A DNA stretch of 64,000 nucleotides. Origin: an uncultured Candidatus Saccharibacteria bacterium. GTDB taxonomy: Bacteria > Patescibacteriota > Minisyncoccia > Sungbacterales > SURF-37. The stretch spans positions 727-64,726 of the forward strand of contig CAYIKH010000001.1 in the NCBI GenBank assembly GCA_964363965.1, written 5' to 3'. Position numbers and translations under genes: made by a program. Position 1 is the first letter of the stretch, and each line of letters starts with the position of its first letter. Of this stretch, positions 733 through 48,439 are shown one piece after another. A model generated the notes under the pieces. It had not been told where the DNA came from. It saw only the letters and a program-made list of their open reading frames with translations, and did not search any database.

Positions 733-733
733 T

Positions 734-1642: not shown

Positions 1643-1856
1643 ATTTTATATTTTAGTTAATCACTAATTCTATTCTTTTAAAATTTTCAAGATATTTTAT
1701 AAATCGCTCACTTAGCGTTCTTTTCGCCCACCAAAATAACATTTTTTGTCCTTACGATACAATCTCCGCCTTTAGTCCGCATATTATAAACTTCTTTATT
1801 TGCGGCCCGAATCTTCCAGAAATTTTGGTTATTATCAGAATTGTTCATACGTGTGC
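1643..1856 (-). promoter_or_regulatory. AT-rich intergenic region upstream of phnD-phnC, likely promoter
   Basis: A 214-bp, very AT-rich non-coding stretch sits between the phnD start and the upstream gene end. No specific boxes were verified. Confidence 0.3.
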
Positions 1857-16253: not shown

Positions 16254-16316
16254 TCTCATGATTTGGGAGTTGCTGTTTCGGCGGACCGGTGCTATGGTAG
16301 TCACTGCCGAATTTCT

Positions 16317-18622: not shown

Positions 18623-18629
18623 GCTTAAT

Positions 18630-21757: not shown

Positions 21758-22747
21758 TTGATTACTATGACAAAACTCATTGCCGAGGTCTGTCAGAACC
21801 ATAAGGGGAACCGGGGGCTCTTGAAGGAGCTAATTTTTGCCGCAGCCGAAGCCGGCGCTGACATCGTGAAGGGCCAGGTTATTTTTTCCGATGACCTTAC
21901 CTACCGTGAACGCTTTGAAGGGGGAGTCGTGGAACATAATGGAGTTCGCAAGACCATCCAGCGTCCGTACGGCCCGGAGCGCGAACGGCTCTCCAAACTC
22001 GATCTTAACGAGGACGATTACCGCTTTTTTATTGAGGAGTGCTATCGCGCCGGAGTCCGGCCGATGCTTACCGTATTTTCGCGCAAGCGCATTCCCTTTG
22101 CGGCGTCCTTGCCGTGGCAGGGCGAGAAACTGTTTAAGGTGGCCAGCTACGATTGCGCGAGTTTCCCCATGCTCCGCGAACTGGCCGGATATTTCGATCG
22201 TCTCATCGTGTCCACCGGCGGAACGTTCGATGATGAAATCAAACAGGCCGCCGAAATTTTACGATCATCGGCCAAACCTTATGCGCTTCTACACTGCGTG
22301 ACCAGTTATCCCAATACTTTGGCCATGGCTAACCTGGCCCGTATCCGATGGCTGAAGCAGTTTGCGCCTGAGACGGGATGGTCGGATCATACCCTGGTCG
22401 AGCGTGACGGCATCAAGGCAGCCAAGGTCGCGATCATGCTCGGGGCTGATTACGTTGAACGACACTTCACCGTCCTCCCGTCAGAGGAGACAAAGGACGG
22501 ACCGGTTTCGATCACTCCACAGCTCCTGGCCGACCTGAAAGCATTCAGCCGCCTTAGTGGGGAGGAACAGCGCGAAGCCGTAAAGCAAGACATCCCGGAG
22601 TGGCCGATCATGATCGGAGCTTCCGAACGCGAGCTCATCCATACCGAGATGCTTAACCGCGATTACTACCGCGGTCGTTTCGCCAGCCGTGTCGGTGAGG
22701 AATGGGTGTATAACTGGGAGGATGGGTTGGAGAGAGAGAAGGTTTGA
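21758..22747 (+). CDS. NeuB-family (PEP-condensing ulosonic acid synthase-like) enzyme lacking SAF domain
   Basis: IAEVCQNHKGNRGLLKELIFAAAEAGADIVKGQ parallels the NeuB N-terminus. LHCVTSYP and WSDHT parallel the NeuB HC..YP / FSDHS motifs. Confidence 0.5.
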   Translation: MITMTKLIAEVCQNHKGNRGLLKELIFAAAEAGADIVKGQVIFSDDLTYRERFEGGVVEHNGVRKTIQRPYGPERERLSKLDLNEDDYRFFIEECYRAGVRPMLTVFSRKRIPFAASLPWQGEKLFKVASYDCASFPMLRELAGYFDRLIVSTGGTFDDEIKQAAEILRSSAKPYALLHCVTSYPNTLAMANLARIRWLKQFAPETGWSDHTLVERDGIKAAKVAIMLGADYVERHFTVLPSEETKDGPVSITPQLLADLKAFSRLSGEEQREAVKQDIPEWPIMIGASERELIHTEMLNRDYYRGRFASRVGEEWVYNWEDGLEREKV

Positions 22748-23904
22748 TGCGCTACATCGTCACAAACTTTGCCTATGGTACCGGGCCGTACCTGCGGACT
22801 ACGGAATTGGCCATCGCGCTGAACCAACGATTGTTCGAGCTTGGTCGCGAGCGGCTCGGTATCATCGTTCCCTGGGTCTACGGCGAGAAGCAGCGCAGTA
22901 TCATGCGTGAGGAGTTTGGGGGCTACAATACCGTCCATCCCGGGGAGATTCTCCTTGATTCGCACCTCGGTGTGCTCTTAAGAAGCGTTTTCTACGGGAA
23001 TAACACCTACGAGCAGGCGCTTTCCCTTTGGGTGGAGCGGGGCGATGCGGCCAGCCGCGAAGCCCAGTCACATCTCTTGGGGATACTCGAACTTGAAGAT
23101 TTATCCGGCCGGCGCGTTACGGTTGCAGGTGGAGAAATCGTACTAGAACTCAATCGCGCCCCGCGTCTCACTTACGCCGTAGCGCCCAGTTACTCAGCGA
23201 CTTTCGCTCATATCTCGGCCATTCTCCGCGCGGTACTCGAGGTGCCGGAAGCCGAGATCCGGGTGGATCGCGAGCTGGTGCGCCGAGCCATACCGCTTGC
23301 CGAGCGGATCGAGCGGCTCCAGCGGCTGCACTTCGTTGCCGAACCAGGGACTTTCTCCTATTTAGGCACACGTATGCGCTACCCGAACGAAGAATCTTCT
23401 CCTCCCATTGCCCGGCCCCTCGCCACGAACAATAAACCCCTGGCCCCGGGGATCTACGTCACCGTCACTGGCATCCCGGGGCTTGAGCGGCTCTACCAGG
23501 AGGCCCGCGGGCTCGGCCTCACCATTTACACCAATGACCCGGAGGCGGTGCCGGGGGCGAAGCGGCTTCTCCCGCATGTCATACCCAATCCGGCGATCAA
23601 ATTTCAGTTTGCGCGGAGCGGTTGGGGTTCGATCTGGAACTCGCAGCTCTCCGGTACCCCCTTCGTCACCCCAGCCTACGATCCTACCGACGATCCGGAG
23701 ATTTACTTCAATAATCGCTGTCTCGAGGAATTGGGACTGGGCATTAGCTATCGCCGTGAATCTTTTAAGAAACTTCTCGAGCTCGCCGAGGCGTTGCGCC
23801 CGCGAATCAAAGCTATCAACCGCGCGATCCTGGCGCGATTCGGCACTTACGATGGTAACCGTTACATCGCCGAGCGCATCGTTGACAGGCATTTCACCGA
23901 GTGA
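22744..23904 (+). CDS. GT-B fold protein, MurG/PseG-like (glycosyltransferase or UDP-sugar hydrolase)
   Basis: The C-terminal FARSGWGSIWNSQLSGTPFV resembles the Glyco_tran_28_C motif. Confidence 0.4.
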   Translation: MMRYIVTNFAYGTGPYLRTTELAIALNQRLFELGRERLGIIVPWVYGEKQRSIMREEFGGYNTVHPGEILLDSHLGVLLRSVFYGNNTYEQALSLWVERGDAASREAQSHLLGILELEDLSGRRVTVAGGEIVLELNRAPRLTYAVAPSYSATFAHISAILRAVLEVPEAEIRVDRELVRRAIPLAERIERLQRLHFVAEPGTFSYLGTRMRYPNEESSPPIARPLATNNKPLAPGIYVTVTGIPGLERLYQEARGLGLTIYTNDPEAVPGAKRLLPHVIPNPAIKFQFARSGWGSIWNSQLSGTPFVTPAYDPTDDPEIYFNNRCLEELGLGISYRRESFKKLLELAEALRPRIKAINRAILARFGTYDGNRYIAERIVDRHFTE

Positions 23905-23993
23905 GAGGTTGGGGTTGAAATTCCTTCGCGGTAGTCGAGGCCGAGACCTCGATGCCGGTGGAGAAGTATTCTTAAAAGAGGCACATCTGCTAT

Positions 23994-24725
23994 ATGTTTA
24001 ACAACACCCACATTCTCGCGATCATCCCGGCCCGTGGCGGTTCGAAGGGTATTCTCCGGAAGAACCTCCGGTTAGTGGCTGGATTGCCGCTAGTTGTCCA
24101 TAGCATTCTTGCCGCCAAAGCTTCACGCTTAATTGAGCGCACTATTGTCTCTACTGACGACGAGGAGATCGCCGAGGTGGCGCGGAGCTACGGGGCCGAA
24201 GTTCCTTTTCTCCGGCCGGCGGATCTGGCTCTCGACACCACTCCGGATTTCCCGGTTTTCGAGCACTGTCTGAATTGGCTTGAGGAGAGTGAGGAGTACC
24301 GGCCCGATATCGTGGTTCATCTCCGGCCCACCGGCCCCCTTCGCACCGGGTTAGAAATCGACGAGGCGGTCGAGCTCCTGGAGCGTCATCCCGAGGCCGA
24401 CTCGGTCCGCTCGGTGCACGAGCCGGATAAATCTCCCTACAAAATGTGGCGGCTCGAAGGTTCGTACATGGTGCCTTTTTTACGTGATCCCGACTACCCC
24501 GAGCACTATAACGCCCCCCGCCAACTCCTGCCCAAGGTCTACGCTACTAATGCCAACATCGGGGTGGTCCGCTACCGGACACTCCGGGAGAAAGGTTCGG
24601 TCATAGGAGAGCGCGTTTTGCCCTATCCTGTCTCCGGGCCGCACGTGGACATTGATACTGAACTCGATCTTGAACTCGCCGAGCTTCTCTTTCGGAAGCG
24701 CGCGCGGGAGGGCCGCGGGTATTGA
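23994..24725 (+). CDS. CMP-ulosonic acid / acylneuraminate cytidylyltransferase family (CTP_transf_3)
   Basis: AIIPARGGSKGILRKN...VSTDDEEIA is the canonical NeuA/KdsB-family N-terminus. Confidence 0.7.
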   Translation: MFNNTHILAIIPARGGSKGILRKNLRLVAGLPLVVHSILAAKASRLIERTIVSTDDEEIAEVARSYGAEVPFLRPADLALDTTPDFPVFEHCLNWLEESEEYRPDIVVHLRPTGPLRTGLEIDEAVELLERHPEADSVRSVHEPDKSPYKMWRLEGSYMVPFLRDPDYPEHYNAPRQLLPKVYATNANIGVVRYRTLREKGSVIGERVLPYPVSGPHVDIDTELDLELAELLFRKRAREGRGY

Positions 24726-26131
24726 TGCAGCGGCGTTTTATGTCGACGGTCTTCCTCGCCCTAGCCAACTCCAGCCACTACTCGGGTGTCCTCCGGACGC
24801 GCTTTATTGCTGAACTCGCCCGGCACTTTCGCGTCCTCGTTCTCACTCCGCAGCTGGATGATGCGATCGTCAAACGCGATCGCTATTTTCGGAATGGAGG
24901 CGTTTCTTACCATCGTTTCCCTATTACCTATCCGCGTTTCTGGAATGTTTTGGACAGGTATCTGCGCGTGCCGCTTGTCTCCTCCTTCGACCACCTCACC
25001 TACATGCGCTATTTCTATCAGCGGTCCCACGCGCCGATCCGGAAACTCCTCATGGCCTCCCGACGGCTCTTCCCGGCATTCCTCTTCACCACCGATCGGT
25101 TGACGCTCTGGGAGGTGCGTTGGGCTCCGCAGGGTAAGGTACTAGCCGAGCTCTTTCGCACTCACACCCCGATCCTCGTCCTCACCGCCACCCCTGGATT
25201 CACGCCCTTCGAAGCCGAAATCATCGTCGCGGCTAAGCGCTTAGGGGTTCAGACCGCGGCTATCAGCATCAACTACGACAACTTGACTTCCAACGGCAAG
25301 CTCATCCGTAAAACCGACTATCTCGCCGTCTGGAACAATCTCATGCGGCGCGAAGCTAAAGTTTTGCATCGCTATTCGGATGAGCGTTTAGGCCTAGTCG
25401 GGTGTCTGCGCTTTGACCATTATTTTTATGATGAGGAGAATCCGCGTTTCCCCTCGCGCGAAGATTTTCTGAAAGCCAAGGGCCTTGATCCCGGCCGGAA
25501 AACACTGGTCTTTGCCGGCCCGACCCCAACCAATTACCCTCCGCGGCGTGAGTTTATTGCCGAGCTCTTGCGTCTTAAACGCGATGGGCACCTTGACGGC
25601 GATCCAAATATCCTGGTTCGCATTCATCCTAACGATAGTCTGGCAACGTATCGCGAGTTCCTTGGGATGCCGGGCATGCATTTTGAAGGCGCAAGTCGCA
25701 ACGTGCGTCTGGATGGCGGCAAGGGGGTGAGCATGGACGAGGAAGACCTTCTGAACCTTACCGCCACCCTTAAATACGCTGATGTTGTTTTGAATTTCGC
25801 CTCGACCGTGGCCATGGAGGCAGCTATCTTTGACCGGCCGGTCATCAATGTCGCCTTTCCCGACTACCGCCGAATCGTGTATCAATATGAATACAATAAA
25901 CACATCGTTGATACTGGCGGCGTGCGTTTAGCCCGAAGCCCGGAGGAGCTTAGTGAACTAGTAAACATGTATTTCCGCAACCCGGCTCTTGATCGCGAAG
26001 CGCGGGCCAAACTCCTTGAATTTTTTATCCCGTTTCGCGACGGCCGGAGCTGGGCGCGAACTATGGACTTCATTGTGAAAATTACCAAGCCCGGTAGTGA
26101 GAGCTTCTCTCTACTACCGGGCAAGCCGTGA
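24722..26131 (+). CDS. TagF-like CDP-polyol phosphotransferase family protein (GT-B), paralogue 1
   Basis: The C-terminus VVLNFASTVAMEAAIFDRPVINVAFPDYRR...YEYNKHIVDTGGVRLARSPEEL parallels the TagF motif region (..ITDYSS...KP.I....D.EEY...YDYE...GP...T.EEL). Confidence 0.55.
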   Translation: MMQRRFMSTVFLALANSSHYSGVLRTRFIAELARHFRVLVLTPQLDDAIVKRDRYFRNGGVSYHRFPITYPRFWNVLDRYLRVPLVSSFDHLTYMRYFYQRSHAPIRKLLMASRRLFPAFLFTTDRLTLWEVRWAPQGKVLAELFRTHTPILVLTATPGFTPFEAEIIVAAKRLGVQTAAISINYDNLTSNGKLIRKTDYLAVWNNLMRREAKVLHRYSDERLGLVGCLRFDHYFYDEENPRFPSREDFLKAKGLDPGRKTLVFAGPTPTNYPPRREFIAELLRLKRDGHLDGDPNILVRIHPNDSLATYREFLGMPGMHFEGASRNVRLDGGKGVSMDEEDLLNLTATLKYADVVLNFASTVAMEAAIFDRPVINVAFPDYRRIVYQYEYNKHIVDTGGVRLARSPEELSELVNMYFRNPALDREARAKLLEFFIPFRDGRSWARTMDFIVKITKPGSESFSLLPGKP

Positions 26132-27501
26132 AGATGAGAACCGTCCTGATCACAATCTATCAGGCCGTGGAGGCCAAAAACATTCTTCGGACTGATATCA
26201 TACGCTCTTTACTCGCCGAGCCGGATGTCCGTGCAGTATGCCTTACTAAATTTAAGGAGCGGGCTGATTATTACCGGCAGGAGATTCCGCATGAGCGGAT
26301 AATTTATGATTACTGCGACCAGGAACCTGGCGGGGCGCTGGAGCGATACTTCAGCGCTTTAAAGTTTCATCTTATCCGCACGGCCACTACTGATCTCAGG
26401 CGCCGCATGAATTTTGAGGAATCTGGAAATTATTTTTCTTATCTCATTGGTCGAGCTCTAAACTTCCTGCTGGCCCGTGGATCAATACGGAGGCTGGCGC
26501 GGTTTTTGGATTATCACCTAGTTTCTGATTCGGGGTTTGGCGATATTCTTAGGCGCTATCAGCCGGATGTTGTTTTTTTTGCTCATCTTTTTGATGATGC
26601 TGAAATTGCGCTTCTTCGCCAGGCCAAAAAGCGCGGAATCCCAACAGTCGGCTTTATTAATTCATGGGATAAATTGACGGCCCGTTCGGCTGTGCGCCTG
26701 CTTCCGGACAGGCTGGTGGTTTATAACGACATTGTAAAGCAAGAGGCCGTGGAGCACGCCGACATGCCGCCGGAGAAGATCGTGGTTTCGGGCATACCGC
26801 AGTATGATCAATATTTTACCCCAGGACCCGTTTCACGACAGGAATTTTGCGCCAAGGCCGGACTTGATCCAAAACGCGCAATTGTGTTATTGGCGCCCAT
26901 GGGTCGGGCTTTTTCCAACTCGGATTGGGAGATGATTGATATGCTTCATGAAATTATTTCTCCAAGCCAAGGTCTGCCGTTATCCCAGCTTTTGGTGCGC
27001 TTCCAGCCCAATGACTTTATTGATGAGGTTGAAATTTCGCGCCGGCCATGGCTGAGATATTCATTGCCCGGGATTCGCTTTGGAACCAGGCGCGGAGGAG
27101 ACTGGGACATGAGATTTGAAGAGCTAACTCATCTTAATGATACCCTTTTTCATTCCAGTCTCCTGGTTTCCTATGCTTCCAGCATGAGCGTGGATGCGGC
27201 CATATTCGGCAAGCCGGTGATCAACATTGATTTTGAATTGAAGCCCGGGGAGTCCATGTCAAAATCGCCAACTTTTTATTACCAGACCGATCATTATAAA
27301 AAAGCCCTTTTAACCGGCGGCATCAGGTTAGTGAAGAGTCGCGATGAGCTGATACAATGGCTCCGGCGTTACCTCCAAGATCCGAGCCTTGATCGTGAAG
27401 GACGGGAGCGGTTGGTTAAAGAGCAGTGCGGTTTAGTTGACGGTAAGGCCGGAGAGCGAATCGCCAGAGCCATTTTCGGGGTATTACAAGTATTACAATA
27501 A
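26128..27501 (+). CDS. TagF-like CDP-polyol phosphotransferase family protein, paralogue 2
   Basis: VSYASSMSVDAAIFGKPVINIDF...YYQTDHYKKALLTGGIRLVKSRDEL. It overlaps paralogue 1 by ATGA. Confidence 0.55.
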   Translation: MKMRTVLITIYQAVEAKNILRTDIIRSLLAEPDVRAVCLTKFKERADYYRQEIPHERIIYDYCDQEPGGALERYFSALKFHLIRTATTDLRRRMNFEESGNYFSYLIGRALNFLLARGSIRRLARFLDYHLVSDSGFGDILRRYQPDVVFFAHLFDDAEIALLRQAKKRGIPTVGFINSWDKLTARSAVRLLPDRLVVYNDIVKQEAVEHADMPPEKIVVSGIPQYDQYFTPGPVSRQEFCAKAGLDPKRAIVLLAPMGRAFSNSDWEMIDMLHEIISPSQGLPLSQLLVRFQPNDFIDEVEISRRPWLRYSLPGIRFGTRRGGDWDMRFEELTHLNDTLFHSSLLVSYASSMSVDAAIFGKPVINIDFELKPGESMSKSPTFYYQTDHYKKALLTGGIRLVKSRDELIQWLRRYLQDPSLDREGRERLVKEQCGLVDGKAGERIARAIFGVLQVLQ

Positions 27502-28328: not shown

Positions 28329-29264
28329 ATGAAAAAGGTTCTTGTTGCTGGTGCAAGTGGTCTTATCGGCGGACATTTAGTGAAGCGGCTGCTCGCCGAT
28401 GGTCATCAGGTCCGCGCAGTTGGGCGCAGGTCGCTTCCGGAATGGCGGCAGTTGCATCCGGCGGCAGAAAACCTGCAGCTTGATTTACGCAAAAAAGAAA
28501 ACTGCTACCGCGCCGTTGAAGGGATGGATGAGGTGTATAATCTTGCCGCGGACATCGGTGGGGCGCGTTACATTGAGTCGAAAAAGGCTGAGCTTATGCT
28601 CTCCGTCCTCATCAATACCCATCTTCTCATGGCCGCTCGCGACCTCGGCGTCAAGCGCTACTTTTATTCTTCGGCCTATGCGGTTTCGGCCGCGGATCAC
28701 GAGCCGGCCGGCGTTCTTGGCGACGGCCACATCTGGGAAAAACTTTTTTCCGAGAAACTTTGCCAATATTTTCGCGAGGATTTTGGGATCCAGACCCGCG
28801 TGGCGCGGCTCCAGAATGTCTATGGTCCCTACGAAACGTACGGCGGGGACCGCGAGCGCGCGACTTCGGCCATGTGTCGCAAGGCTATCGAAGCCAGGCG
28901 TTCCGGCAATCATGAGTTTGAAATTTGGGGTGACGGAACTCAAGAGCGAAATTTTCTATATGTCGATGATGCGCTAGACGGTATTATAAAGCTTTTACCA
29001 AGCGACATCACCGAGCCGGTCGCGTTGGGGAGTTCGGAGTTCATCACCATTAACCAACTCGTGGATATTGTTGAAGGTATCGCCGGCATCAAGTTTGAAC
29101 GCCGCTATAATTTATCTGCTCCGGTAGGCACGCCTCGCCGCCCAGGCCCTCCGCCCGGCCATCCACGCCTTGATTGGCAGTCAAAAATATCGCTCCGCGA
29201 GGGCATGACGCGCCTCTATCGGTGGATGGAGCAGGATATGGAGCGAAAATTAGTAAAGGTATGA
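28329..29264 (+). CDS. NAD-dependent epimerase/dehydratase (extended SDR)
   Basis: VLVAGASGLIGGHLV; ...YSSAY... Confidence 0.7.
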   Translation: MKKVLVAGASGLIGGHLVKRLLADGHQVRAVGRRSLPEWRQLHPAAENLQLDLRKKENCYRAVEGMDEVYNLAADIGGARYIESKKAELMLSVLINTHLLMAARDLGVKRYFYSSAYAVSAADHEPAGVLGDGHIWEKLFSEKLCQYFREDFGIQTRVARLQNVYGPYETYGGDRERATSAMCRKAIEARRSGNHEFEIWGDGTQERNFLYVDDALDGIIKLLPSDITEPVALGSSEFITINQLVDIVEGIAGIKFERRYNLSAPVGTPRRPGPPPGHPRLDWQSKISLREGMTRLYRWMEQDMERKLVKV

Positions 29265-30292
29265 GGCTTGTCATCATCGGCACAACCATCAACGGTGAAA
29301 AGGGTTATTTGTCCTTGGATCGTCTTGCGGCCAAAAGCAAATTTCCCGATGTTACATTTGTCATTGCCGGAGACAAAAATTCTAAGCCTTTTGATACTTC
29401 CGGCTTCCAATGCCGGGTCGAGTATCTCGAGCCCAAAGATCAGGAGCGGTTCGAATCAAGCGTGCCTATCGGCTGGAAAACTCCGCGCCGCAGGCCAATT
29501 GCCTGGTTGCGGGCCATTGAGTTAAAGCCCGATGTTATTATCTCCGTTGATGATGACAATATCCCGCCCGATGATTACTTCGACACTTGGTATTCCGTTC
29601 TTACGAGTTCGGTCACTCAAACCGTCCTTCCGGTGCCAGGCGCCCGCGAGCCTGTTTGGCATAACTATCTCCGCTCCAGCGACGCGCCGATTGAGTTTTA
29701 TCCTCGCGGGTTTCCGATTCCTTTCCGCGGTCCTGCCAAGACCGTGATCGCGGCCGCCGCTAAGCCCATCCCGCAGCAGGAAATTGGTCTTTTCCAGGGA
29801 ATCTCCCTTGGCGATCCGGACATTGATTCTCTCACACGGATGGTTTATCCGAAGCGGATGCCGCTTAAAGCCATCAGCGAAAAGAACTACTGCCTCCGCG
29901 ATGTCTGGTCGCCGTATAATATGCAGAGCACCGCTTATCGGCCGATCCTATTTGGCCTGCCTATCCTCTGGCCGCATAATGGCCGCTTCGATGATATCTA
30001 CGCATCATTCGCGTTTCAAAAACTTCTTTTCAACAACCGGAAGTATGCATATGTGGGCGATCCCATCAATTTGCAGGATCGCGGGGTTCGTAATACTCTG
30101 AAACTCGATTTCCCGGAGGAAATCCACGGCCATCTTGGCTCGCACGAGGTCTGGTCGCGCCTCAATGAAATTGAGGAAACCGATTCGGCGCGTTTCCTCG
30201 AAAAGCTGATGGCCATTGATCACGAGCACATTCAACGTGATCTAGAGTTTTTCAAGGCGTTTCGCCAAGATATTTCAATGGTTCTGAAATAG
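29261..30292 (+). CDS. RGP/GT75-like protein (reversibly glycosylated polypeptide / UDP-arabinopyranose mutase-like)
   Basis: VIISVDDDNIPPDDYF, FYPRGFPIPFRG and GRFDDIYASFAFQ resemble the plant RGP/UAM DDDCF, FVRGYPFSLREG and GRYDDMWAGWC motifs. These are recalled from memory and were not searched. Confidence 0.4.
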   Translation: MRLVIIGTTINGEKGYLSLDRLAAKSKFPDVTFVIAGDKNSKPFDTSGFQCRVEYLEPKDQERFESSVPIGWKTPRRRPIAWLRAIELKPDVIISVDDDNIPPDDYFDTWYSVLTSSVTQTVLPVPGAREPVWHNYLRSSDAPIEFYPRGFPIPFRGPAKTVIAAAAKPIPQQEIGLFQGISLGDPDIDSLTRMVYPKRMPLKAISEKNYCLRDVWSPYNMQSTAYRPILFGLPILWPHNGRFDDIYASFAFQKLLFNNRKYAYVGDPINLQDRGVRNTLKLDFPEEIHGHLGSHEVWSRLNEIEETDSARFLEKLMAIDHEHIQRDLEFFKAFRQDISMVLK

Positions 30293-30293
30293 C

Positions 30294-31229
30294 ATGACAA
30301 AAGTTCTTGTTACCGGAGGAGCAGGATATCTCGGGTCAATTTTAACCGAGCATCTTTTGGATGCCGGATTTGACGTCATTGTCTTAGACAATCTGATGTA
30401 CGGGCAGGGGAATCTTGGTCATCTTGCTGCAAACCCACGCTTCGAATTTATTCGCGGCGATGGTCGGGACGAGCGTCTAATGAAAGAGCTTATCTCCAAA
30501 GCTGATGTCCTAATCCCGCTTGCGGCCATTGTCGGCGCTCCGGCCTGTGACCGCGATCCGTCGCTGGCCACGTCAGTGAACCTCGAGGCGATTCGGCTCG
30601 TAAATCGCCTCCGCAGCCCGAATCAGCTCGTTGTTTTTCCGAATACCAATAGCGGCTACGGAACGAAGTCCGGCGAGGTCTATTGCACCGAAGATACGTC
30701 ACTTGAGCCGATCACCCTTTATGGCCGGCTGAAAGTCGAGGCCGAAAAAGAGCTTTTGAGCTCGCTGAACACCGTCATACTTCGCCTGGCCACGGTCTTT
30801 GGCCTGTCCCCGCGAATGCGGCTTGATTTGCTGGTTAATGACTTTGTCTACAAGGCTGTCACCGACGGCTATCTCGTGATCTTTGAGAAGGATTTCAAGA
30901 GAAATTACATCCACATCCGCGACGTGGCCGACTGCTTCATCCACTCCATCAAGAACGCGCAAAAAATGGCTGGCCGGCCTTATAACGCCGGACTCGATGA
31001 CGCAAATCTTTCCAAAGAGGAACTTGCGCTCAAGGTCAAGGAATACGTTCCCAAGCTCTACATCCACTTTGCCGAGATCGGTAGCGATCCGGACAAGCGT
31101 AATTACATCGTTTCCAACGAGCGGCTGCGACAGGCCGGGTTTGAGGCCAAGCGCACGATTGACCAGGGCATTCAGGAGCTTATCAAAGGTTACAGAATGA
31201 TGGGCCGCCATCCGTTTAAGAATGTATGA
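30294..31229 (+). CDS. NAD-dependent epimerase/dehydratase (extended SDR)
   Basis: VLVTGGAGYLGSIL; YGRLK (Y-x3-K). Confidence 0.75.
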   Translation: MTKVLVTGGAGYLGSILTEHLLDAGFDVIVLDNLMYGQGNLGHLAANPRFEFIRGDGRDERLMKELISKADVLIPLAAIVGAPACDRDPSLATSVNLEAIRLVNRLRSPNQLVVFPNTNSGYGTKSGEVYCTEDTSLEPITLYGRLKVEAEKELLSSLNTVILRLATVFGLSPRMRLDLLVNDFVYKAVTDGYLVIFEKDFKRNYIHIRDVADCFIHSIKNAQKMAGRPYNAGLDDANLSKEELALKVKEYVPKLYIHFAEIGSDPDKRNYIVSNERLRQAGFEAKRTIDQGIQELIKGYRMMGRHPFKNV

Positions 31230-31948
31230 CCGAGCCGGCTCGACACGGCCTTTCCGGAATCACGGCGGCAATTCTTGCCGGCGGACTCGGAACTCGCCTG
31301 CGTTCGGTCCTTGCCGACAAGCCAAAGGTCTTGGCCGAAATCTACGGTCGACCGTTTCTTAGCTATCTTTTGGACCAGCTCAACGATGCGGGAGTGAGGC
31401 GGGTCGTTCTCCTGATTGGCTACCGCGGCGATGAGATACGAAACGTGTTCGGTGATTATTACAAGAATCTTAAGATTCGTTATTCCGAAGAGTCCTCACC
31501 CCTTGGCACTGGCGGCGCAGTGCGCTTGGCTTTGCCGATACTCGACTCTGATCCGGCGTTTATCATGAACGGCGATTCCTTCTGCGATGCGGATATCATG
31601 ACATTTTATGCTTGGCATTGCGCCAAAGACCGCTCCGGCTCTCTCCTGCTTGCTGAAGTTACTGATTCATCACGTTACGGCCGGGTGGCGCTCGATGCAG
31701 CTGGCGTCGTGCTGCGCTTTGAGGAAAAGGGCGGGCATGCCGGCCCCGGATTGATTAACGCCGGTGCTTATCTCCTCAGCCGCCGCGTGCTCGAATCCAT
31801 ACCCGAAGGGCGAGCGGTTTCGATTGAGCATGAGGTTTTTCCAAGTTGGATCGGACAAGGCCTTTACGGCTATCAAACGAGCGGCCGATTCATTGACATC
31901 GGCACGCCGGAGTCGTACGCCGAGGGCCTAAAATTCTTTGCAAGGTGA
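31226..31948 (+). CDS. hddC: Sugar-1-phosphate nucleotidyltransferase (HddC-like, D-glycero-D-manno-heptose-1-P guanylyltransferase candidate)
   Basis: AAILAGGLGTRLRSV..DKPK is the nucleotidyltransferase motif. The ~240-aa size fits, and it sits just before hddA/gmhB/gmhA. Confidence 0.6.
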   Translation: MTEPARHGLSGITAAILAGGLGTRLRSVLADKPKVLAEIYGRPFLSYLLDQLNDAGVRRVVLLIGYRGDEIRNVFGDYYKNLKIRYSEESSPLGTGGAVRLALPILDSDPAFIMNGDSFCDADIMTFYAWHCAKDRSGSLLLAEVTDSSRYGRVALDAAGVVLRFEEKGGHAGPGLINAGAYLLSRRVLESIPEGRAVSIEHEVFPSWIGQGLYGYQTSGRFIDIGTPESYAEGLKFFAR

Positions 31949-32046
31949 GAGGTCTTAGCTGGTGAGCGATTAGTCGGCCGATGACCGAAACCTATTCTTG
32001 TGAGGTATTTCTATCTGGATATGCATCGGCAACATTCGAACTCAAC

Positions 32047-33051
32047 ATGGTAATTTCCAAAACCCCGTGGCGAATATCGTTTTTCGGCGGCGGCACGGAT
32101 TTGCCGGCCTGGTACCGCGAGCACGGCGGAGCGGTTTTGAGCACCACCATTGATAAATACGGCTACATCACCTGTCGCTTCTTGCCGCCTTTTTTTGAGC
32201 ATAAAAACCTTGTTGTTTGGTCGCATATCGAGAAGACAAAAAGCGTGGATGAGATTCTTCATCCTTCGGTGCGCGAAACCCTGAAGTTCCTTAATTTTCA
32301 CGATGGCTTGGGCATACACTTTGACGGCGATCTTCCGGCGCGCACCGGTCTAGGCTCAAGCTCGTCTTTTACCGTTGGCCTTTTGAATGCTCTTTATGCC
32401 TTGCGTGGGCAGGAGACAACTAAAAAACAGCTTGCGCTTGATGCCATTCACATCGAGCAGAATCTCATTCGGGAAAACGTCGGCTCGCAGGATCAGGTGG
32501 CCGCCGCTTTCGGAGGGCTAAACCGCATCACCTTTGATAAAAGCGGGGAGATTGATGTTACTCCGATTCCAATCAAGCCCGAGCGGCTCGAAGAACTTCA
32601 AAATCATCTTATGCTTGTTTTCACCGGACTCTTGCGCAGTGCTTCGAGCGTCGAGGGCGAAAAAATCCAAAATATGTCCCAACGGGTTCGCGAATTTACT
32701 GCGATGCACGAGATGGTGGGTGAGGCGTTTGGTATCCTTACTGACGAGCGCGACCGACTTCATGATTTCGGCAAACTGCTTCACGAGATGTGGCAGCTTA
32801 AACGGACTTTGGCTTCATCTGTCGCCAATGACCACATTGACGGAATATACGAAGAGGCGCGGCAAACCGGCGCCATCGGTGGCAAGCTTTTGGGTGCTGG
32901 CGGAGGCGGATTCATGCTTTTATTCGCACCGCCTGAAGTTCAACCCAAAATCCGCGAGCGATTAAAGGGTTTGATGCAGGTTCCATTTCGTTTTGAATCC
33001 CAAGGCAGCCATATCATCCATCAAACCCCGCACTCGCCTTATCTGGTATAA
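32047..33051 (+). CDS. hddA: GHMP kinase, D-glycero-D-manno-heptose 7-phosphate kinase-like
   Basis: KTPWRISFFGGGTDLP, and the GHMP motif PARTGLGSSSSFTVG. Confidence 0.7.
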   Translation: MVISKTPWRISFFGGGTDLPAWYREHGGAVLSTTIDKYGYITCRFLPPFFEHKNLVVWSHIEKTKSVDEILHPSVRETLKFLNFHDGLGIHFDGDLPARTGLGSSSSFTVGLLNALYALRGQETTKKQLALDAIHIEQNLIRENVGSQDQVAAAFGGLNRITFDKSGEIDVTPIPIKPERLEELQNHLMLVFTGLLRSASSVEGEKIQNMSQRVREFTAMHEMVGEAFGILTDERDRLHDFGKLLHEMWQLKRTLASSVANDHIDGIYEEARQTGAIGGKLLGAGGGGFMLLFAPPEVQPKIRERLKGLMQVPFRFESQGSHIIHQTPHSPYLV

Positions 33052-33064
33052 GTTTAAGTAGACC

Positions 33065-33634
33065 ATGTCAAAACGCCGTTTTGTGATTTTGGACCGCGAC
33101 GGCACGATTATTGAAGGCGTGCAGCCTTATGTTTTGCATCCGGATCAGGTGGCACTTTTGCCGGGCGCGGCTCGGACGCTCCGAGAACTAAAATCTCAAG
33201 GTTTTGGGCTTATAGTAGTTACCAATCAGTCTGCAGTTGGCCGTGGCCTGATCGATTCCAGCCGCCTCGAGGAGATTCATCAGCGTTTCATCGGGCTCCT
33301 GGCTAGGGAAGGAGTTGAACTCGACGGTATTTATGTATGTACTCATCATCCCGATGACAAGTGTGTCTGTCGTAAGCCGCTACCCGGTCTCGTTGATCAG
33401 GCGGTGAGTGAGCACGGTTTTGACCTGAAGCAATCATTTCTGATCGGCGATGATGCCAAAGATATCGAACTTGGGCATGCAATCGGCGCCACGACATTTC
33501 TCGTTCGTACTGGACACGGCGAGTCTTTTTTAGCTGGGGGTCTTGGGATACAACCGCATCACGTCGTAGCCGACTTACCTTCGGCCGCAAGCGTGATTCA
33601 TACCTTAACCGTTGACCGGTCAAATGCGGCGTGA
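33065..33634 (+). CDS. gmhB: D,D-heptose 1,7-bisphosphate phosphatase (HAD family)
   Basis: FVILDRDGTI (DxDGT), VVTNQSAVGRG, and the CTHHPDDKCVCRKP Zn-binding loop typical of GmhB. Confidence 0.75.
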   Translation: MSKRRFVILDRDGTIIEGVQPYVLHPDQVALLPGAARTLRELKSQGFGLIVVTNQSAVGRGLIDSSRLEEIHQRFIGLLAREGVELDGIYVCTHHPDDKCVCRKPLPGLVDQAVSEHGFDLKQSFLIGDDAKDIELGHAIGATTFLVRTGHGESFLAGGLGIQPHHVVADLPSAASVIHTLTVDRSNAA

Positions 33635-34356
33635 AATCAATGGAAAAGAATAACGATTTTCTTCACAATATAGTGCGCTCGCATCTTGTCGAAAGCGCGC
33701 TCGTAAAACGGCGTCTCCTCGGAGCGACTGGCGGTTTTGATTATTCTAAGGTTCAAGTTGTTAGTGCCGGTCTTTCCATGCCGCAATACTCGAGTGATGT
33801 CGTGTCCGGGAGCGATGCGGTTGATGCGGTAGTGCAGGCAGTCTCGACCATTGCTGCCTCTTTTCGGAACGGCGGCAAGCTGATGCTCTGCGGAAATGGC
33901 GGGAGCGCTGCGGATTGCCAGCACATGGCTGCGGAGTTTACAAACATTCTTGAGCGCTCGTTCGACCGCGGGCCACTCCCCGCCATATCGCTCACTACCG
34001 ATACGTCGTTTCTCACTTCGTTCATAAACGATTCGCGGCTGTTCGCCCAGATTTTCTCGCGTCAGGTGGAGGCGCTCGGCCGGAAGGGGGACGTTCTCAT
34101 CGGCATCTCAACGAGCGGCGGCTCCGAGAACGTAATTCGCGCTGTCAGGAAGGCCCAAGAGATGGGCATGGCAACGATTGCCTTCACCGGAGAGGGCGGG
34201 CCGCTTGCTGAAGTCGCGGACATCGCGATTCGGGTGCCGAGCGCGCGGACAAGCCATATCCAGGAGGCGCATCTGGCTATTGAACATGCCATCTGTGATG
34301 CCGTGGAGCATCTTATGTTTCCGGAGAAAGGTTCGGCATTAAGGGAGGCAGTGTAA
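33631..34356 (+). CDS. gmhA: Phosphoheptose (sedoheptulose-7-phosphate) isomerase, SIS domain
   Basis: LCGNGGSAADCQHMAAEF and GISTSGGSENV. Confidence 0.75.
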   Translation: MKSMEKNNDFLHNIVRSHLVESALVKRRLLGATGGFDYSKVQVVSAGLSMPQYSSDVVSGSDAVDAVVQAVSTIAASFRNGGKLMLCGNGGSAADCQHMAAEFTNILERSFDRGPLPAISLTTDTSFLTSFINDSRLFAQIFSRQVEALGRKGDVLIGISTSGGSENVIRAVRKAQEMGMATIAFTGEGGPLAEVADIAIRVPSARTSHIQEAHLAIEHAICDAVEHLMFPEKGSALREAV

Positions 34357-34373: not shown

Positions 34374-35231
34374 ATGAACATTACCGTTGTTGGCGGAAAG
34401 GGTTTTATCGGCAAGCCGCTTGTGGCCGAACTTAGCAAGCGTCATCGCGTCGAGACTTGGGATCTTCCGGAAGTTGATCTCCGCGATCCGGCCGCAATTG
34501 CCAAACGACTTGAAGAGAGGAGGCCAGATATGGTGGTCAATTTAGCTGCAGTGCTGGGAACGATGTATTCTAAAAACATCCAGGAGATTTTTGCGACAAA
34601 TGTTGTTGGGAATATAAATCTTGTAGAGGCCTGTCTCGCGCATGGGATAAAAAGATTCGTATTTGCAAGTTCCTTGACTGTGCACGGTCCGAACGAAATA
34701 GGAAAACATCATACGTCGCACTCACCCTTTAATCCTATCCAGGCCTATGCCGCCAGCAAAGCCGCTGCGGAATACAGTCTAATGCAATATTCGAAACATA
34801 ACGGTGTGACGACCGTGGTATTGCGGCCTGCAAGTGTACTGGGGGAGGGCACGCCAATGAATCATGCGCCTAGTGATTTTGTAAAAACACTACTTCGCGG
34901 CGATTCGATTGAGCTTTTTGGCGGAGGGGAACATGAAAGAGAGTGGCTATGGATTGATGATGTTGTATCTGGGTTTTGCAAGGCGGTAGATTTTTGCGCC
35001 AAAGCTCCAGCTGGCTACCACCCGTTTTTTATTTCCGCAAACCGCATCTCAATGAAGGATCTTGCCGAAAGATGCGTTAGCTTTATTGGTGGTTCAGTAA
35101 AAGTCGCTGCTGGTACTGCTCAAGCTTTTTCGTTGACATGCGATGCATCAGATACCCAAAAAATACTTGGTTGGAGAGTCGAGTATACTATAGACGATAT
35201 CATTCAAAACCTGATTAAAATTTTTAAATAG
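34374..35231 (+). CDS. NAD-dependent epimerase/dehydratase (extended SDR)
   Basis: ITVVGGKGFIGKPL; YAASKAAAE (Y-x3-K). Confidence 0.7.
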   Translation: MNITVVGGKGFIGKPLVAELSKRHRVETWDLPEVDLRDPAAIAKRLEERRPDMVVNLAAVLGTMYSKNIQEIFATNVVGNINLVEACLAHGIKRFVFASSLTVHGPNEIGKHHTSHSPFNPIQAYAASKAAAEYSLMQYSKHNGVTTVVLRPASVLGEGTPMNHAPSDFVKTLLRGDSIELFGGGEHEREWLWIDDVVSGFCKAVDFCAKAPAGYHPFFISANRISMKDLAERCVSFIGGSVKVAAGTAQAFSLTCDASDTQKILGWRVEYTIDDIIQNLIKIFK

Positions 35232-35247: not shown

Positions 35248-35763
35248 ATGGTAAAAGTTTCTAAAACAAAACTCCCCGGCCTGCTCCTGATTCAGCTTGA
35301 CGCCTTTCGCGACCATCGCGGGGTGTATGTCGGGACCTATGACGAGGCGCGCTACCGCAAGCTCGGCATCCGGGTGAAGTTCGTGGAGGACGATTATTCG
35401 CGCTCGCGCCGGCGGGTGCTCCGCGGCATCCACGCCGATTCCAAATCGTGGAAACTCATTTCCTGCCCGCTTGGTAGAATTCTCGTTGTCATCGTCAATT
35501 GCAACCGCCGATCGCGGCGTTTCGGCCGATGGCAGGCCTTTGAACTTTCGGAGAAGAACTGCCGCCAGCTCCTCGTTCCCCCCAAGCACGGCGTAGTGCA
35601 TCTTGTCCTCTCTCGCCAGGCCATGTTCAGTTACAAGCAGTCCGAGTATTACGATCCCAAGCGCCAAGCCACGTATCGCTGGGACGATCCCGCCTTCAAG
35701 ATCCGCTGGCCGGTGCGAAACCCCATTCTCTCGAAGCGTGATCGGCTCGGTCACTACGTGTAG
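35248..35763 (+). CDS. NDP-4-keto-6-deoxy sugar 3,5-epimerase, RfbC-like cupin
   Basis: The dTDP-4-dehydrorhamnose 3,5-epimerase fold is recognisable from RGIHAD...KLISCPLGRILVV...YDP. In this context it may act on GDP-heptose intermediates. Confidence 0.7.
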   Translation: MVKVSKTKLPGLLLIQLDAFRDHRGVYVGTYDEARYRKLGIRVKFVEDDYSRSRRRVLRGIHADSKSWKLISCPLGRILVVIVNCNRRSRRFGRWQAFELSEKNCRQLLVPPKHGVVHLVLSRQAMFSYKQSEYYDPKRQATYRWDDPAFKIRWPVRNPILSKRDRLGHYV

Positions 35764-35784: not shown

Positions 35785-36909
35785 ATGAAAATCAAAAGAC
35801 TCCTCGTGGTCCCGTGCGACACGCTGGTACAAGGAAAGGAGGTTGCCAGGCGAACCTCCTTTTTTGGCGAGGCGGCCTCGTTCTTGGCTATCAAGCTTGG
35901 CCGGAGCGGCTTTAGCTATGACGGCGAGATACAGTTTTACGGCGATTTTCCGGCTCTGCTCGGCAAAGAACACGTGTTTGTCTACGGACGATTCCATCCC
36001 CATCTTTATGTGAAGCACGTTCCAAAAAACTGCCCTTACCCCTCCTGCCACGGCCTGCCGAAAGGGACGGCGATAGGATCAAAGGATCTTAGTGCGGTCA
36101 TGAGCCAGGTGGATGCGGTGTTTGTTTCCTTGCGCGGCGGCGAGAGGGCCCAGGAGGTGCTCGCCGAGGCTGGGCGGCGCGGCATTCCCAGAGCGCTCTT
36201 TGATTTTGAGGATTATCCGGAAATCTACGGCCGGGCGCTTGCCGCAAAAGAACTCACGGCTGGCTATGCGCACGGCAAGGACTTTGAGCTTTATTTCAAG
36301 AAAGAATTGCCGCTCGGCTTTCGCACGGATACCATCTTGCCGCTTGCGCCAAGTCCGGTGCGGCCCGAATCTTATCGCTTTCCGAACGCTAACAAGCGTC
36401 ATGCTATTTTTTATAGCGGCCGTTCGCGTCCGGGCTGTCAGGCGGATCGCGAGGAGGCTGTGGCGCTTCTCGGGAAGTTTCCCGGCGGCGAATTTATTGA
36501 CCACGATCGGCGGCGCCGGAGCTTTTTGACCACGCATGAATACTGGCGGCATCTTGCCGAAAGCCGCATGGCTCTTTCGCCGTCCGGCAAGTCCTGGGAT
36601 TCTTACCGGCACTGCGAGGTCGGGCTTGCTCCGCAAACTCTCCTCATTGCGCCCAAACCCTTCATCGAAACTGCTGGTCCGCAGCTTATAGATGGCCGAA
36701 ATGCAATTCTCTACGACACCGAGTTTCGCGACGGGAAATATCATCTTAAAGACGCCGGCGCGCTTGCCGATGCGGTCCGTTATTATCTCAGCCACGACGA
36801 CGAGAGGAAAAAAATTGCCGATGCGTGGCAGCGCGATGTCCTTTCGGGACATACGGTATTAGGCCGCTCGTGCTATATACTCGAGAGTATGGAGCGAGCC
36901 TTCTCATGA
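35785..36909 (+). CDS. Hypothetical protein, possible GT-B-like glycosyltransferase
   Basis: 374 aa. The C-terminal region (RMALSPSGKSWDSYRHCEVGLAPQTLLIAP) is reminiscent of GT-B donor-binding domains. No firm assignment. Confidence 0.3.
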   Translation: MKIKRLLVVPCDTLVQGKEVARRTSFFGEAASFLAIKLGRSGFSYDGEIQFYGDFPALLGKEHVFVYGRFHPHLYVKHVPKNCPYPSCHGLPKGTAIGSKDLSAVMSQVDAVFVSLRGGERAQEVLAEAGRRGIPRALFDFEDYPEIYGRALAAKELTAGYAHGKDFELYFKKELPLGFRTDTILPLAPSPVRPESYRFPNANKRHAIFYSGRSRPGCQADREEAVALLGKFPGGEFIDHDRRRRSFLTTHEYWRHLAESRMALSPSGKSWDSYRHCEVGLAPQTLLIAPKPFIETAGPQLIDGRNAILYDTEFRDGKYHLKDAGALADAVRYYLSHDDERKKIADAWQRDVLSGHTVLGRSCYILESMERAFS

Positions 36910-38243: not shown

Positions 38244-39566
38244 ATCAGTTGAAATGTCGTAGTTGGCCTCGCTTTGCAGTATTTGATCGAGACTGGCGGC
38301 GAGTGCGGCAATGGAGTCTATGTGGTAGCGTTCGGGGATGGGAATGGCGAATTCTCGTTTGCCTCGCAGTTTCGCGGTTGCGGTTTGGCGTTTTTCGCGC
38401 CAGAGCGCGATCGGCCCGACAAAAGCTCTCCAGAGGTGATGCAGCTTCATGCGCCTTGAAATAAGCACCAGCGGCACTCCCAGCGCCCGGATTACGGCCT
38501 CGAGCTTAAGCCGTTTTTTTTCTGCCGCCGGCAAGGTTTCGAGGAAGCCGAATAAATTCAACCAATTGGCTAGAGCCGTAAAAAAATCAGTGTCGAGGTA
38601 GAAAAGTTCCCTAAGATATAATTCGGCGAATCGAGCGTAATTTATCTTGAAGCCGCCGACGAGATCCGGAAGCAATTGTTGAACCCGGAGGTAATTTTCC
38701 AGAATTCCGTTGACTCTTGTGTAGGCGGAAACAGGACTGAATTCAGGCTTGAACGGTCGGGCTTGAAAGCGCCGGTGCGCCGCGGTTGACCAGGCTTGAC
38801 TCATTGATACGCCGAGCCGGCCGACAATAACCACCGGCCGATCGATGAAAAAGCACGATTTGGCAAAAGCAAACATAATTGGCTGAAGGGAATGGATGTT
38901 GGGCATATCGGCGAGTAGGAGAAATCCCAGTCGCATGATGGCTCGTTCTATAACCTGACGGGATATCACCGTGGCCGAAAAATGGAAGCGCGGCAAAGTC
39001 TGTCCCGGTCCTCGCTTCCCAAAGTCATAGAGGCTCCTGATGGTTTCCCTAAGGTCAATTTTCCGGCTTTGGCCGGTAAAGGGTATAATGCCAAGACCGT
39101 TTCTTAGGAAACGGCGCGGATGGTTTTGGTCGTAATAGTAGAAGTGGCTCGCGGTTATGATTTCCGATCCGTCCTGCCGTATTGCCTCGCGAAAAAGTTC
39201 AAGGGCCTGCGGCAGAAGGTAATTGTCGTCATCAAACCACATTACGTATTCGCCCCGCGCTTCTTTTGCGGCGTGGTCCCAGGTTATAAGTCCGGGGCCA
39301 GGCGGGGGATGGAGATAGCGGATGCGCGGATCTCCAGAGTCGGTGGCCGCGCGTTCGGATTCAGGAGACGTGCTCAAATCCGAGATGACAATTTCAAAAT
39401 CCTGAAAGCTTTGCTCCAGAACCGATTTGACGGCCATGCGGATGAGTTCAGGCCGGCCGGTGGTCGGAATAAGTATTGAGAAAAACGGCCTTTTCGTTTT
39501 ACTTTCATTGCTCATAGCAATAAATTCACCATACATTAATACCAAAATGCGCGCCATTATTCTCAC
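38217..39566 (-). CDS. GT2 family glycosyltransferase with extended C-terminal domain
   Basis: FSILIPTTGRPELIRMAVKSVLEQSFQDFEIVISD...WFDDDN. The start is uncertain among GTG 39566, ATG 39557 and ATG 39515. Confidence 0.65.
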   Translation of the reverse strand: MRIMARILVLMYGEFIAMSNESKTKRPFFSILIPTTGRPELIRMAVKSVLEQSFQDFEIVISDLSTSPESERAATDSGDPRIRYLHPPPGPGLITWDHAAKEARGEYVMWFDDDNYLLPQALELFREAIRQDGSEIITASHFYYYDQNHPRRFLRNGLGIIPFTGQSRKIDLRETIRSLYDFGKRGPGQTLPRFHFSATVISRQVIERAIMRLGFLLLADMPNIHSLQPIMFAFAKSCFFIDRPVVIVGRLGVSMSQAWSTAAHRRFQARPFKPEFSPVSAYTRVNGILENYLRVQQLLPDLVGGFKINYARFAELYLRELFYLDTDFFTALANWLNLFGFLETLPAAEKKRLKLEAVIRALGVPLVLISRRMKLHHLWRAFVGPIALWREKRQTATAKLRGKREFAIPIPERYHIDSIAALAASLDQILQSEANYDISTDLQSVKPLQ

Positions 39567-40533: not shown

Positions 40534-40541
40534 GGAATCGC

Positions 40542-41678: not shown

Positions 41679-41681
41679 ATT

Positions 41682-48253: not shown

Positions 48254-48439
48254 CCGAAATTCTAAATCCGAATATCGAAATCCGAAACAAATTCGAATTT
48301 TCAAATTCTAAATTTCAAACACGTTTCGGTTTTTAGAGTTTAGGTATTGGGATTTGTTTCGAATTTCGTGCTTCGTGCTTCGGATTTCAGTCTTGGTATA
48401 AACCTGGTTTCCTGGATTAAGGTAATAACTAATGGAAGC
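48254..48439. repeat. Low-complexity intergenic repeat region
   Basis: Degenerate repeats of aaattctaaat / cgaaatccgaa, plus a tandem tcgtgct x2 (48366-48379). Confidence 0.5.

Follow-up and report, generated by a model that had tools for sequence, protein, structure and literature searches.

The window considered in this article, a 64,000-nucleotide stretch of contig CAYIKH010000001.1 (assembly GCA_964363965.1) from an uncultured bacterium of the Patescibacteriota lineage, carries at positions 29261-30292 of the forward strand a gene for a putative metal-dependent GDP-sugar pyranose-furanose mutase of 343 residues. An initial annotation had described its product as resembling the reversibly glycosylated polypeptides (RGPs) of family GT75, had regarded it as a possible nucleotide-sugar mutase, and had placed the gene between two epimerases and upstream of a heptose module. 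This context is accurate, as genes for PF01370 short-chain dehydrogenases/reductases (SDRs) lie on both sides, followed by genes for a nucleotidyltransferase, a GHMP kinase, a HAD phosphatase and a SIS isomerase. The product is assigned to the GT75 superfamily as a soluble GT-A enzyme with a single domain, and the discussion below proceeds from its homology and active site to its neighborhood, its probable function and its relation to known systems.

The reading frame also stands as initially drawn, since it contains no stop codons and an identical 343-residue product has been called separately on four metagenome contigs from the Hainich H43 groundwater well (0.1-0.2 um filters). A longer open reading frame (ORF) starting from a TTG codon at 29174 was rejected because these independent gene calls, together with the N-termini of homologues, which coincide with the ATG at 29261, favor the latter start. 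This ATG overlaps, within the 4-bp sequence ATGA, the stop codon that terminates the preceding SDR gene, and the two genes are predicted to be translationally coupled.

Assignment to the GT75 Superfamily

A Pfam scan of the protein returned no family at E ≤ 10, so that the check suggested by the initial annotation, a hidden Markov model (HMM) search against the RGP model PF03214, produced no match, and the NCBIfam scan gave FadR alone at E = 0.13, which was taken as noise. Despite the Pfam miss, membership in GT75 is supported by significant homology to MtdL and by relatives that bridge to PF03214. Among all sequences of the Protein Data Bank (PDB), MtdL was the sole protein found by phmmer (E = 2.6e-16), in entries 7XPR, 7XPS, 7XPT, 7XPU, 7YUA and 8HL8, which are listed as 'Transglycosylse' and represent the first crystallized nucleoside diphosphate (NDP)-pyranose mutase of GT75 (PMC9937993). 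A profile built from 50 close homologues matched MtdL at E = 3.3e-30, and a profile built from 96 superfamily representatives, selected as matches to the family profile at E < 1e-35, covered the whole of MtdL (E = 3.6e-77) and also recovered rice UDP-arabinopyranose mutase (1.1e-11). On their own, 66 of these 96 representatives match PF03214 (best 5.8e-14), and 46 also match PF03385, the STELLO glycosyltransferases. The AlphaFold2 model computed from the family alignment (pLDDT 95.3, pTM 0.93) displays the fold specific to GT75, comprising a GT-A Rossmann region, a unique core and a C-terminal helical region. Judged by homology, the protein is a divergent member of the GT75/RGP superfamily beyond the reach of the Pfam model, and the RGP/GT75-like assignment is upheld by the MtdL homology, the bridging relatives and the conserved residues of GT75 mutase chemistry described below.

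A search of 5.8 billion proteins identified 133 relatives, all labelled 'hypothetical' and devoid of a Pfam domain, and those with a named source are metagenome-assembled genomes of Patescibacteria. The GTDB genomes that carry a member belong to Sungiibacteriota, Jorgensenbacteria, Taylorbacteria and further Patescibacteria, with a few in Planctomycetota and one in a gammaproteobacterium. When 1.84 billion cluster representatives were searched exhaustively with an HMM, 2411 proteins scored E ≤ 1e-3, of which 241 reached E ≤ 1e-30; just two of the 2411 belong to the family of the window protein itself, the others being more distant. The rarity of bacterial RGP homologues, as initially asserted, holds for curated lists, with nine bacterial GT75 entries in CAZy in 2019 (PMC6861824), but not for metagenomes, where the 2411 clusters are found. 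Only two bacterial GT75 mutases have been characterized, both from actinomycete antibiotic pathways, and a family of about 130 members, predominantly patescibacterial and without a Pfam or NCBIfam name, is described here. The protein belongs to an unannotated, divergent GT75 subfamily, plausibly with a new substrate.

Active Site and Nucleotide Selectivity

The motifs recognized by the initial annotation, namely DDD, an RGYPF-like segment and GR(F/Y)DD(I/M), are present as D97-D98-D99-N100, P148-R149-G150-F151-P152 and G241-R242-F243-D244-D245-I246, and are accompanied by G184-D185-P-D187-I-D189 and N-M-Q222-S-T. Given the phmmer match to MtdL and their (near-)invariance across 50 family members, these motifs are far above chance, and D97-D98-D99-N100 is invariant in all 96 superfamily representatives as well.

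The functional residues of MtdL have been defined by crystal structures and mutagenesis, which showed D109-111, R159, D195, Q229, R257, D260 and R289 to be essential or ligand-binding (PMC9937993). These residues were mapped onto the window protein through profile alignments, with conservation scored across the same 50 members. The DxD motif D109/D110/D111, of which D111 binds Mn, corresponds to D97/D98/D99 (invariant, 50/50), and the nucleophile R159, equivalent to R158 of OsUAM1 and to the arginine that is autoglycosylated in plant RGPs, corresponds to R149 in the P-R-G-F-P segment. Also invariant are D187 (MtdL D195, which orients the arginine), Q222 (Q229, which binds the beta-phosphate and the sugar), D245 (D260, the proposed general base) and R274 (R289, which binds the diphosphate), and 48 of the 50 members retain R242 (R257, which binds the beta-phosphate) and R277 (in place of the diphosphate-binding H292). 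At two further positions the residue is not that of MtdL: H287, the second Mn ligand, is replaced by Q272, an invariant glutamine in the family, and D87, which contacts sugar O4/O6, is replaced by P75 at a variable position that is proline or glutamine in the clade of the window protein.

Selectivity for GDP over UDP has been ascribed to MtdL T13, N42 and S86, which are Pro/Asp/Asp in RGPs using UDP-sugars (PMC9937993). The corresponding residues of the window protein are T8, N40 and T74; T8 is invariant, whereas position 40 (N/K/S/T) and position 74 (K/T/S) vary in the family and are never dominated by aspartate. This set appears compatible with the use of a GDP-sugar, although the last two positions vary. 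By homology, the nucleotide would be contacted by T8, I10, D38 and N40.

Gene Neighborhood

The coordinates of the putative mutase gene, its neighbors and the more distant features of the window are collected in Table 1. The assignments HddC/mannose-1-phosphate guanylyltransferase, HddA, GmhB and GmhA are the best NCBIfam matches, each of which lies below the curated cut-off. The protein of PDB entry 6VO6, the match of the SDR encoded immediately downstream of the putative mutase gene, is presumably Cj1427 of Campylobacter jejuni.

Table 1. Features of the window, in order of position.
Feature	Position	Strand	Remarks
Phosphonate-binding ABC substrate-binding protein	734-1642	-	in low-GC region
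CDP-alcohol phosphatidyltransferase	1857-2669	-	partly in low-GC region
Two NDP-hexose C-methyltransferases	6329-7690, 16263-17543
RmlB/RmlD-like genes	17558-19484
Two Glyphos_transf-like proteins	24722-27501
Derived GDP-mannose-3,5-epimerase-like SDR ('type A')	28329-29264	+	best match AtGME 2C59, E 5e-56
Putative GT75-superfamily (MtdL-like) metal-dependent GDP-sugar pyranose-furanose mutase	29261-30292	+	343 aa
SDR (PF01370), Cj1427-like	30294-31229	+	PDB 6vo6 over full length, E 7.6e-109, ~58% identity read off alignment
Sugar-1-phosphate guanylyltransferase, HddC / mannose-1-P guanylyltransferase-like	31226-31948	+	man1P_GTase 175 bits, HddC 151 bits
GHMP kinase, best family match HddA (D-glycero-D-manno-heptose 7-phosphate kinase)	31981-33051	+
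GmhB-like heptose 1,7-bisphosphate phosphatase (HAD-IIIA)	33065-33634	+
GmhA-like sedoheptulose-7-phosphate isomerase (SIS domain)	33631-34356	+
SDR3, short extended SDR, RmlD-like	34374-35231	+	285 aa; candidate C4 reductase of heptose pathway
RmlC-type cupin 3,5-epimerase	35248-35763	+
GT-B-like glycosyltransferase (PF13524)	35785-36909	+	candidate furanosyltransferase
Wzy_C+TPR protein	45923-48253
Bac_transf initiating transferase	49385-50803	-

The cupin is about equally similar to RmlC and to the GDP-4-keto-heptose 3,5-/3-epimerases of C. jejuni (7m14, 8dco, 7ang, ~1e-31). Orthologues of the PF13524 glycosyltransferase directly adjoin the mutase homologue in four related loci (L005, L008, L011, L017), and no homologue of this transferase was found in the PDB; it is a candidate furanosyltransferase that would use the product of the mutase.

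A full-length (415 aa) UDP-glucose/GDP-mannose-type dehydrogenase lies inside the heptose operon of some relatives (L047 11577-12824, L048 5098-6345 and the P0030 locus), where hepturonic acid may be made. The sole such dehydrogenase of the window, at 48347-49324, is distant and short (325 aa) and matches only the N-terminal and central domains.

Derived Epimerase and Class I Loop

ORFs were called in 46, later 51, related loci and searched with the proteins of the window. An alignment of all the SDRs related to GDP-mannose 3,5-epimerase (GME) revealed two kinds of partner, one canonical and one derived, the latter referred to as type A. The canonical partners retain the residues corresponding to Cys145 (SSSACIYP), Tyr174/Lys178 (EYGWEK) and Lys217 (GGKEKAPAA) of AtGME, and they adjoin mutase homologues about 52-54% identical to that of the window, in the absence of heptose genes (L011, L016, L026/L050, L015, L035). 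Pairing with a GME predicted to be functional is found in these sister lineages (L011, L016, L026, L015) and not in the window. In the MtdM/MtdL system, a GME reportedly supplies GDP-L-galactose to the mutase.

The type A SDR, which the window shares with L009, L010, L020-L023, L031, L032, L047 and L048, always lies directly upstream of the mutase homologues designated class I. In every member, Cys145 is replaced by Ala/Val, Tyr174 by His (DGH[IV]WEK) and Lys217 by Arg (Ala, His and Arg, respectively, in the window), so that the catalytic YxxxK motif of SDRs becomes HxxxK. A deletion of about 13 residues is also present, and G-R/K-R/K (G-R-R in the window) occupies the position of the aspartate that binds NAD-ribose in GME. 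Because the residues for epimerization have been lost and the Rossmann motif is NADP-like, it may be guessed that the type A SDR is an NADPH-dependent C4 reductase, a descendant of GME that keeps the C4-reduction step alone.

A parallel difference is observed in the mutase homologues. Residues 73-76 (K73-T74-P75-R76) align with H85-S86-D87-N88 of MtdL, which contact sugar O4/O6, and read K-[TSD]-[PQ]-[RK] in class I, whereas other lineages carry N-K-[IP]-[MA] and variants thereof. Under strict criteria no column proved clade-specific; a relaxed threshold recovered this loop together with eight other positions. The loop signature was then used to select six members on long contigs whose loci had not been seen before. 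All three class I picks (P0030, P0041, P0024) showed one gene order, in which the type A SDR and the mutase are followed by the cupin, the Cj1427-like SDR, a nucleotide-sugar dehydrogenase, the short SDR, the GHMP kinase and the nucleotidyltransferase, with HAD and SIS genes also present at P0030. None of the three class II picks (P0052, P0086, P0118) had heptose genes within 10 kb. Altogether, heptose genes occur in 9/9 class I loci with sufficient flanking sequence, each of which has a type A SDR gene directly upstream and three of which are the picks made beforehand, and in 1/13 loci of other lineages (L008). The gene order is kept across proteins that are 53-65% identical to those of the window. 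The family is divided into one lineage beside canonical GME and the clade of the window beside the derived SDR and the GDP-heptose operon. In a neighbor-joining tree, class I and L008 form one clade nested inside the GME-linked lineages, with MtdL far outside.

The locus L008 (GCA_964481965.1, 2774-11029) contains a mutase homologue with the loop KKPQ, which belongs to neither class, beside the GT1_2 orthologue. HddA/HddC-like, Cj1427-like and SDR3-like genes are present there, and no type A SDR, cupin, GmhA or GmhB lies within 10 kb.

Proposed Function and Mechanism

On the strength of the homology, fold, residue conservation and synteny demonstrated above, the protein is considered, with moderate confidence, to be a GT75-type GDP-sugar pyranose-furanose mutase that works like MtdL and Hyg20, probably on a modified GDP-heptose destined for a surface glycan. 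By analogy with MtdL, a divalent cation carried by the DDD motif (D97-D99), with Gln272 at the position of MtdL His287, would bind the diphosphate of the GDP-sugar. Asp245 would deprotonate Arg149, which Asp187 would orient, and the attack of Arg149 on C1 would displace GDP; the pyranose ring would then open, O4 would re-close on C1, and renewed attack by GDP would yield the GDP-furanose.

The substrate would arise from a co-transcribed operon through oxidation at C4 by the Cj1427-like dehydrogenase, subsequent 3,5-epimerization by the cupin and reduction at C4 by SDR3 and/or the GME-derived SDR. In C. jejuni, Cj1427, a cupin and a reductase lead to L-configured heptoses (PMC10680097). The predicted product of the route in the window is a GDP-heptopyranose of the L-galacto or L-gluco type, which the mutase would contract to a GDP-heptofuranose for the glycosyltransferase. 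These configurations are favored on three grounds: L-galacto sugars are substrates of MtdL, GDP-L-galactose is what the ancestral partner produces, and L-heptoses are the outcome of the C. jejuni pathway. The furanose predicted by the initial annotation had been either a heptofuranose or an arabinofuranose. The former is strengthened by the synteny with GDP-heptose genes in 9/9 class I loci, and the latter is unlikely because the closest characterized relative is the bacterial MtdL, a GDP-sugar enzyme, and not a plant UDP-arabinose mutase.

A narrower proposal can be put forward only tentatively and with some doubt. The protein may be a GT75-type mutase that forms a GDP-heptofuranose, such as GDP-D-glycero-L-galacto-heptofuranose, without a flavin, and that evolved within Patescibacteria from a GDP-L-galactose mutase while its GME partner turned in parallel into a non-epimerizing, HxxxK-containing NADP-type reductase. 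We know of no enzyme demonstrated to form a nucleotide sugar of the GDP-D-glycero-L-galacto-heptofuranose type, and the literature searches yielded no publication that connects GT75 with heptose or with Patescibacteria. If the proposal is correct, ultra-small bacteria of the candidate phyla radiation (CPR) display heptofuranose on their surface glycans. The locus would provide a defined operon through which GDP-furanoses, possibly heptofuranose, could be formed without a flavin, and the paired evolutionary switch of mutase loop and epimerase-derived SDR could reveal how the sugar specificity of GT75 changes. The family would also provide enzymes for the chemo-enzymatic synthesis of rare NDP-furanoses. 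A non-flavin heptofuranose route with a co-evolved SDR would be of note to glycobiologists without overturning existing understanding.

Opposing Evidence and Alternative Explanations

Several observations weigh against a heptose-directed mutase. The protein is missed by Pfam, including PF03214, and shares only about 22% identity with MtdL. It has glutamine in place of the Mn ligand His287, which is conserved in the active AtRGP1-3 (PMC9937993), and proline in place of Asp87, although the D87N/S substitutions inactivate MtdL. GT75 proteins also autoglycosylate, and class 2 UDP-arabinopyranose mutases (UAMs) of the RGP5 type are inactive (PMC9937993); residue conservation alone cannot separate mutase activity from arginine glycosyltransferase activity. 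With regard to the neighborhood, the guanylyltransferase scores slightly higher on the mannose-1-phosphate model than on HddC (175 and 151 bits), the association of class I with heptose genes (Fisher p 2e-5) is not corrected for shared ancestry, and L008 has heptose genes without the class I loop. Furthermore, in C. jejuni, the sole system with known heptofuranose, the proposed GDP-6-deoxy-heptopyranose mutases (HS:10, HS:41) are of the FAD type and uncharacterized (PMC10680097). Two of these points are tempered by related proteins: the equivalent of Asp87 is serine in active plant RGPs (PMC9937993), and glutamine occupies the His287 position in more than 90% of the 96 superfamily representatives, which indicates that the histidine of MtdL is a minority state among these relatives and that glutamine is the norm rather than a lesion.

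Two other types of mutase were examined and rejected. An FAD-type mutase is incompatible with the GT-A fold and with the absence of any UDP-galactopyranose mutase (UGM)/FAD family in the Pfam scan, and a UDP-arabinopyranose mutase with the GDP specificity of the nearest relative, the base-selecting residues, which are compatible with GDP, and the lack of adjoining UDP-xylose or UDP-arabinose genes.

Among the remaining explanations, the same chemistry may be directed at a hexose, the protein being an MtdL-like mutase of GDP-L-galactopyranose (or GDP-L-fucopyranose), with GDP-L-galactose supplied by the GME-like SDR and the heptose genes as bystanders in a glycan island. Such a role, consistent with the L-galactose and L-fucose substrates known for MtdL, with the higher mannose-1-phosphate score of the guanylyltransferase and with a clade nested among lineages whose adjoining GME is intact, is nevertheless judged unlikely. 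The partner SDR of this clade lacks all three acid/base residues of GME in every orthologue, the loop aligned with the sugar O4/O6 contact is systematically distinct from its counterpart in the GME-linked lineages, and the order of SDR, mutase, cupin, Cj1427-like gene, HddA and HddC is kept despite the divergence of the proteins. In addition, neither phosphomannomutase nor phosphomannose isomerase was found among the scanned ORFs of the window.

A GT75-like glycosyltransferase acting on its own Arg149 or on a protein or lipid acceptor in the manner of RGPs or STELLO, and using the GDP-sugar of the operon, seems more improbable still. The conserved residues serve both activities, GT75 members autoglycosylate the conserved arginine, a GT-A fold and a DxD motif are present, and nearly half of the superfamily relatives match STELLO (46/96), but both characterized bacterial relatives are mutases and the confident single-domain model shows neither an extension for acceptor binding nor a membrane segment. 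The coupling to nucleotide-sugar-modifying enzymes, which in sister lineages takes the form of GME and a separate glycosyltransferase, also fits a role in precursor supply. An inactive paralogue of regulatory or scaffolding type, comparable to plant class 2 UAM or AtRGP5, is highly improbable. The loss of His287 and Asp87 would be in keeping with this, as the inactive AtRGP5 lacks the equivalents of His287 and Arg257; against it stand the strong conservation of Arg242, the Arg257 equivalent, and of the other catalytic residues, the prevalence of glutamine at the His287 position, and the absence of a second, 'active' paralogue among the scanned ORFs of the window.

Surrounding Glycan Island

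The putative mutase gene is embedded in about 49 kb of contiguous glycan-biosynthesis genes (~2900-52000), bounded by the housekeeping genes for MurB (54600) and SecA (57327). An island of this size further supports a heavy commitment of CPR bacteria with tiny genomes to surface glycans. Two separate modules of NeuB and a CMP-sugar synthetase are located at 21758-24725 and 39427-43636, implying nonulosonic or ulosonic acid pathways. The latter module also includes a 2-hydroxyacid dehydrogenase and a NeuC-like 2-epimerase, and the set of 2-Hacid_dh, NeuB, Epimerase_2 and CTP_transf_3 also accompanies the mutase homologues of L005, L011 and L049. Split transketolase/E1-like gene pairs are present beside other family members (L006 7096-8994; L047 7249-9004 and 15489-17263; L051 3432-5450 and 12268-14176), and their occurrence in glycan clusters suggests two-carbon branch or chain-extension sugar chemistry.

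Within the island, the ORFs at 8788-10749 and 11303-13210 on the forward strand (653 and 635 aa) have no Pfam match and lie in a region of strongly negative AT skew (-0.14 to -0.24). The first 2000 nucleotides of the window (1-2000) have a GC content of 0.378, compared with approximately 0.51-0.59 elsewhere, and no tRNA was found in the window.

Comparison with Known Systems

The most closely related characterized enzymes are MtdL of Marinactinospora thermotolerans, from the A201A pathway, and Hyg20 of Streptomyces hygroscopicus, both of which are Mn2+-dependent GT75 mutases of GDP-L-galactose and GDP-L-fucose; MtdL catalyzes the reversible conversion of GDP-L-galactopyranose and GDP-L-fucopyranose to the corresponding furanoses (PMC9937993). 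The window protein shares with them the DDD motif, the nucleophilic arginine, the aspartate base and the equivalents of Asp195, Gln229, Arg257 and Arg289, as well as threonine and asparagine at positions that select guanine in MtdL, the asparagine being variable within the family, and relatives in its family adjoin the GME that supplies a substrate of the GDP-L-galactose type. It differs from MtdL in its low identity, in the PF03214 miss, in glutamine, arginine and proline for the Mn-binding His287, His292 and the essential Asp87, and in the genes that surround its own, a GDP-heptose operon and a GME-derived SDR without the epimerase residues. In addition, MtdL and Hyg20 are encoded in actinomycete antibiotic clusters, whereas the family of the window protein resides in the surface-glycan islands of Patescibacteria.

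Plant UAMs/RGPs, such as OsUAM1 and OsUAM2 (structure 8CID), have in common with the window protein the DDD motif, the arginine of xRG(F/Y)P, the third DxD motif (D187-I-D189) and R-x-D-D. Their identity to it is only about 11-12%, and they use UDP-sugars with Pro/Asp/Asp as base-selecting residues. The gene in the window is not flanked by genes for UDP-xylose or UDP-arabinose. FAD-dependent mutases of the UGM/Glf type are unrelated in fold and cofactor, as the window protein is a GT-A/DxD enzyme with no flavin-binding family in the Pfam scan, yet the overall reaction predicted here, the conversion of an NDP-pyranose to an NDP-furanose, possibly on GDP-heptose, is the same.

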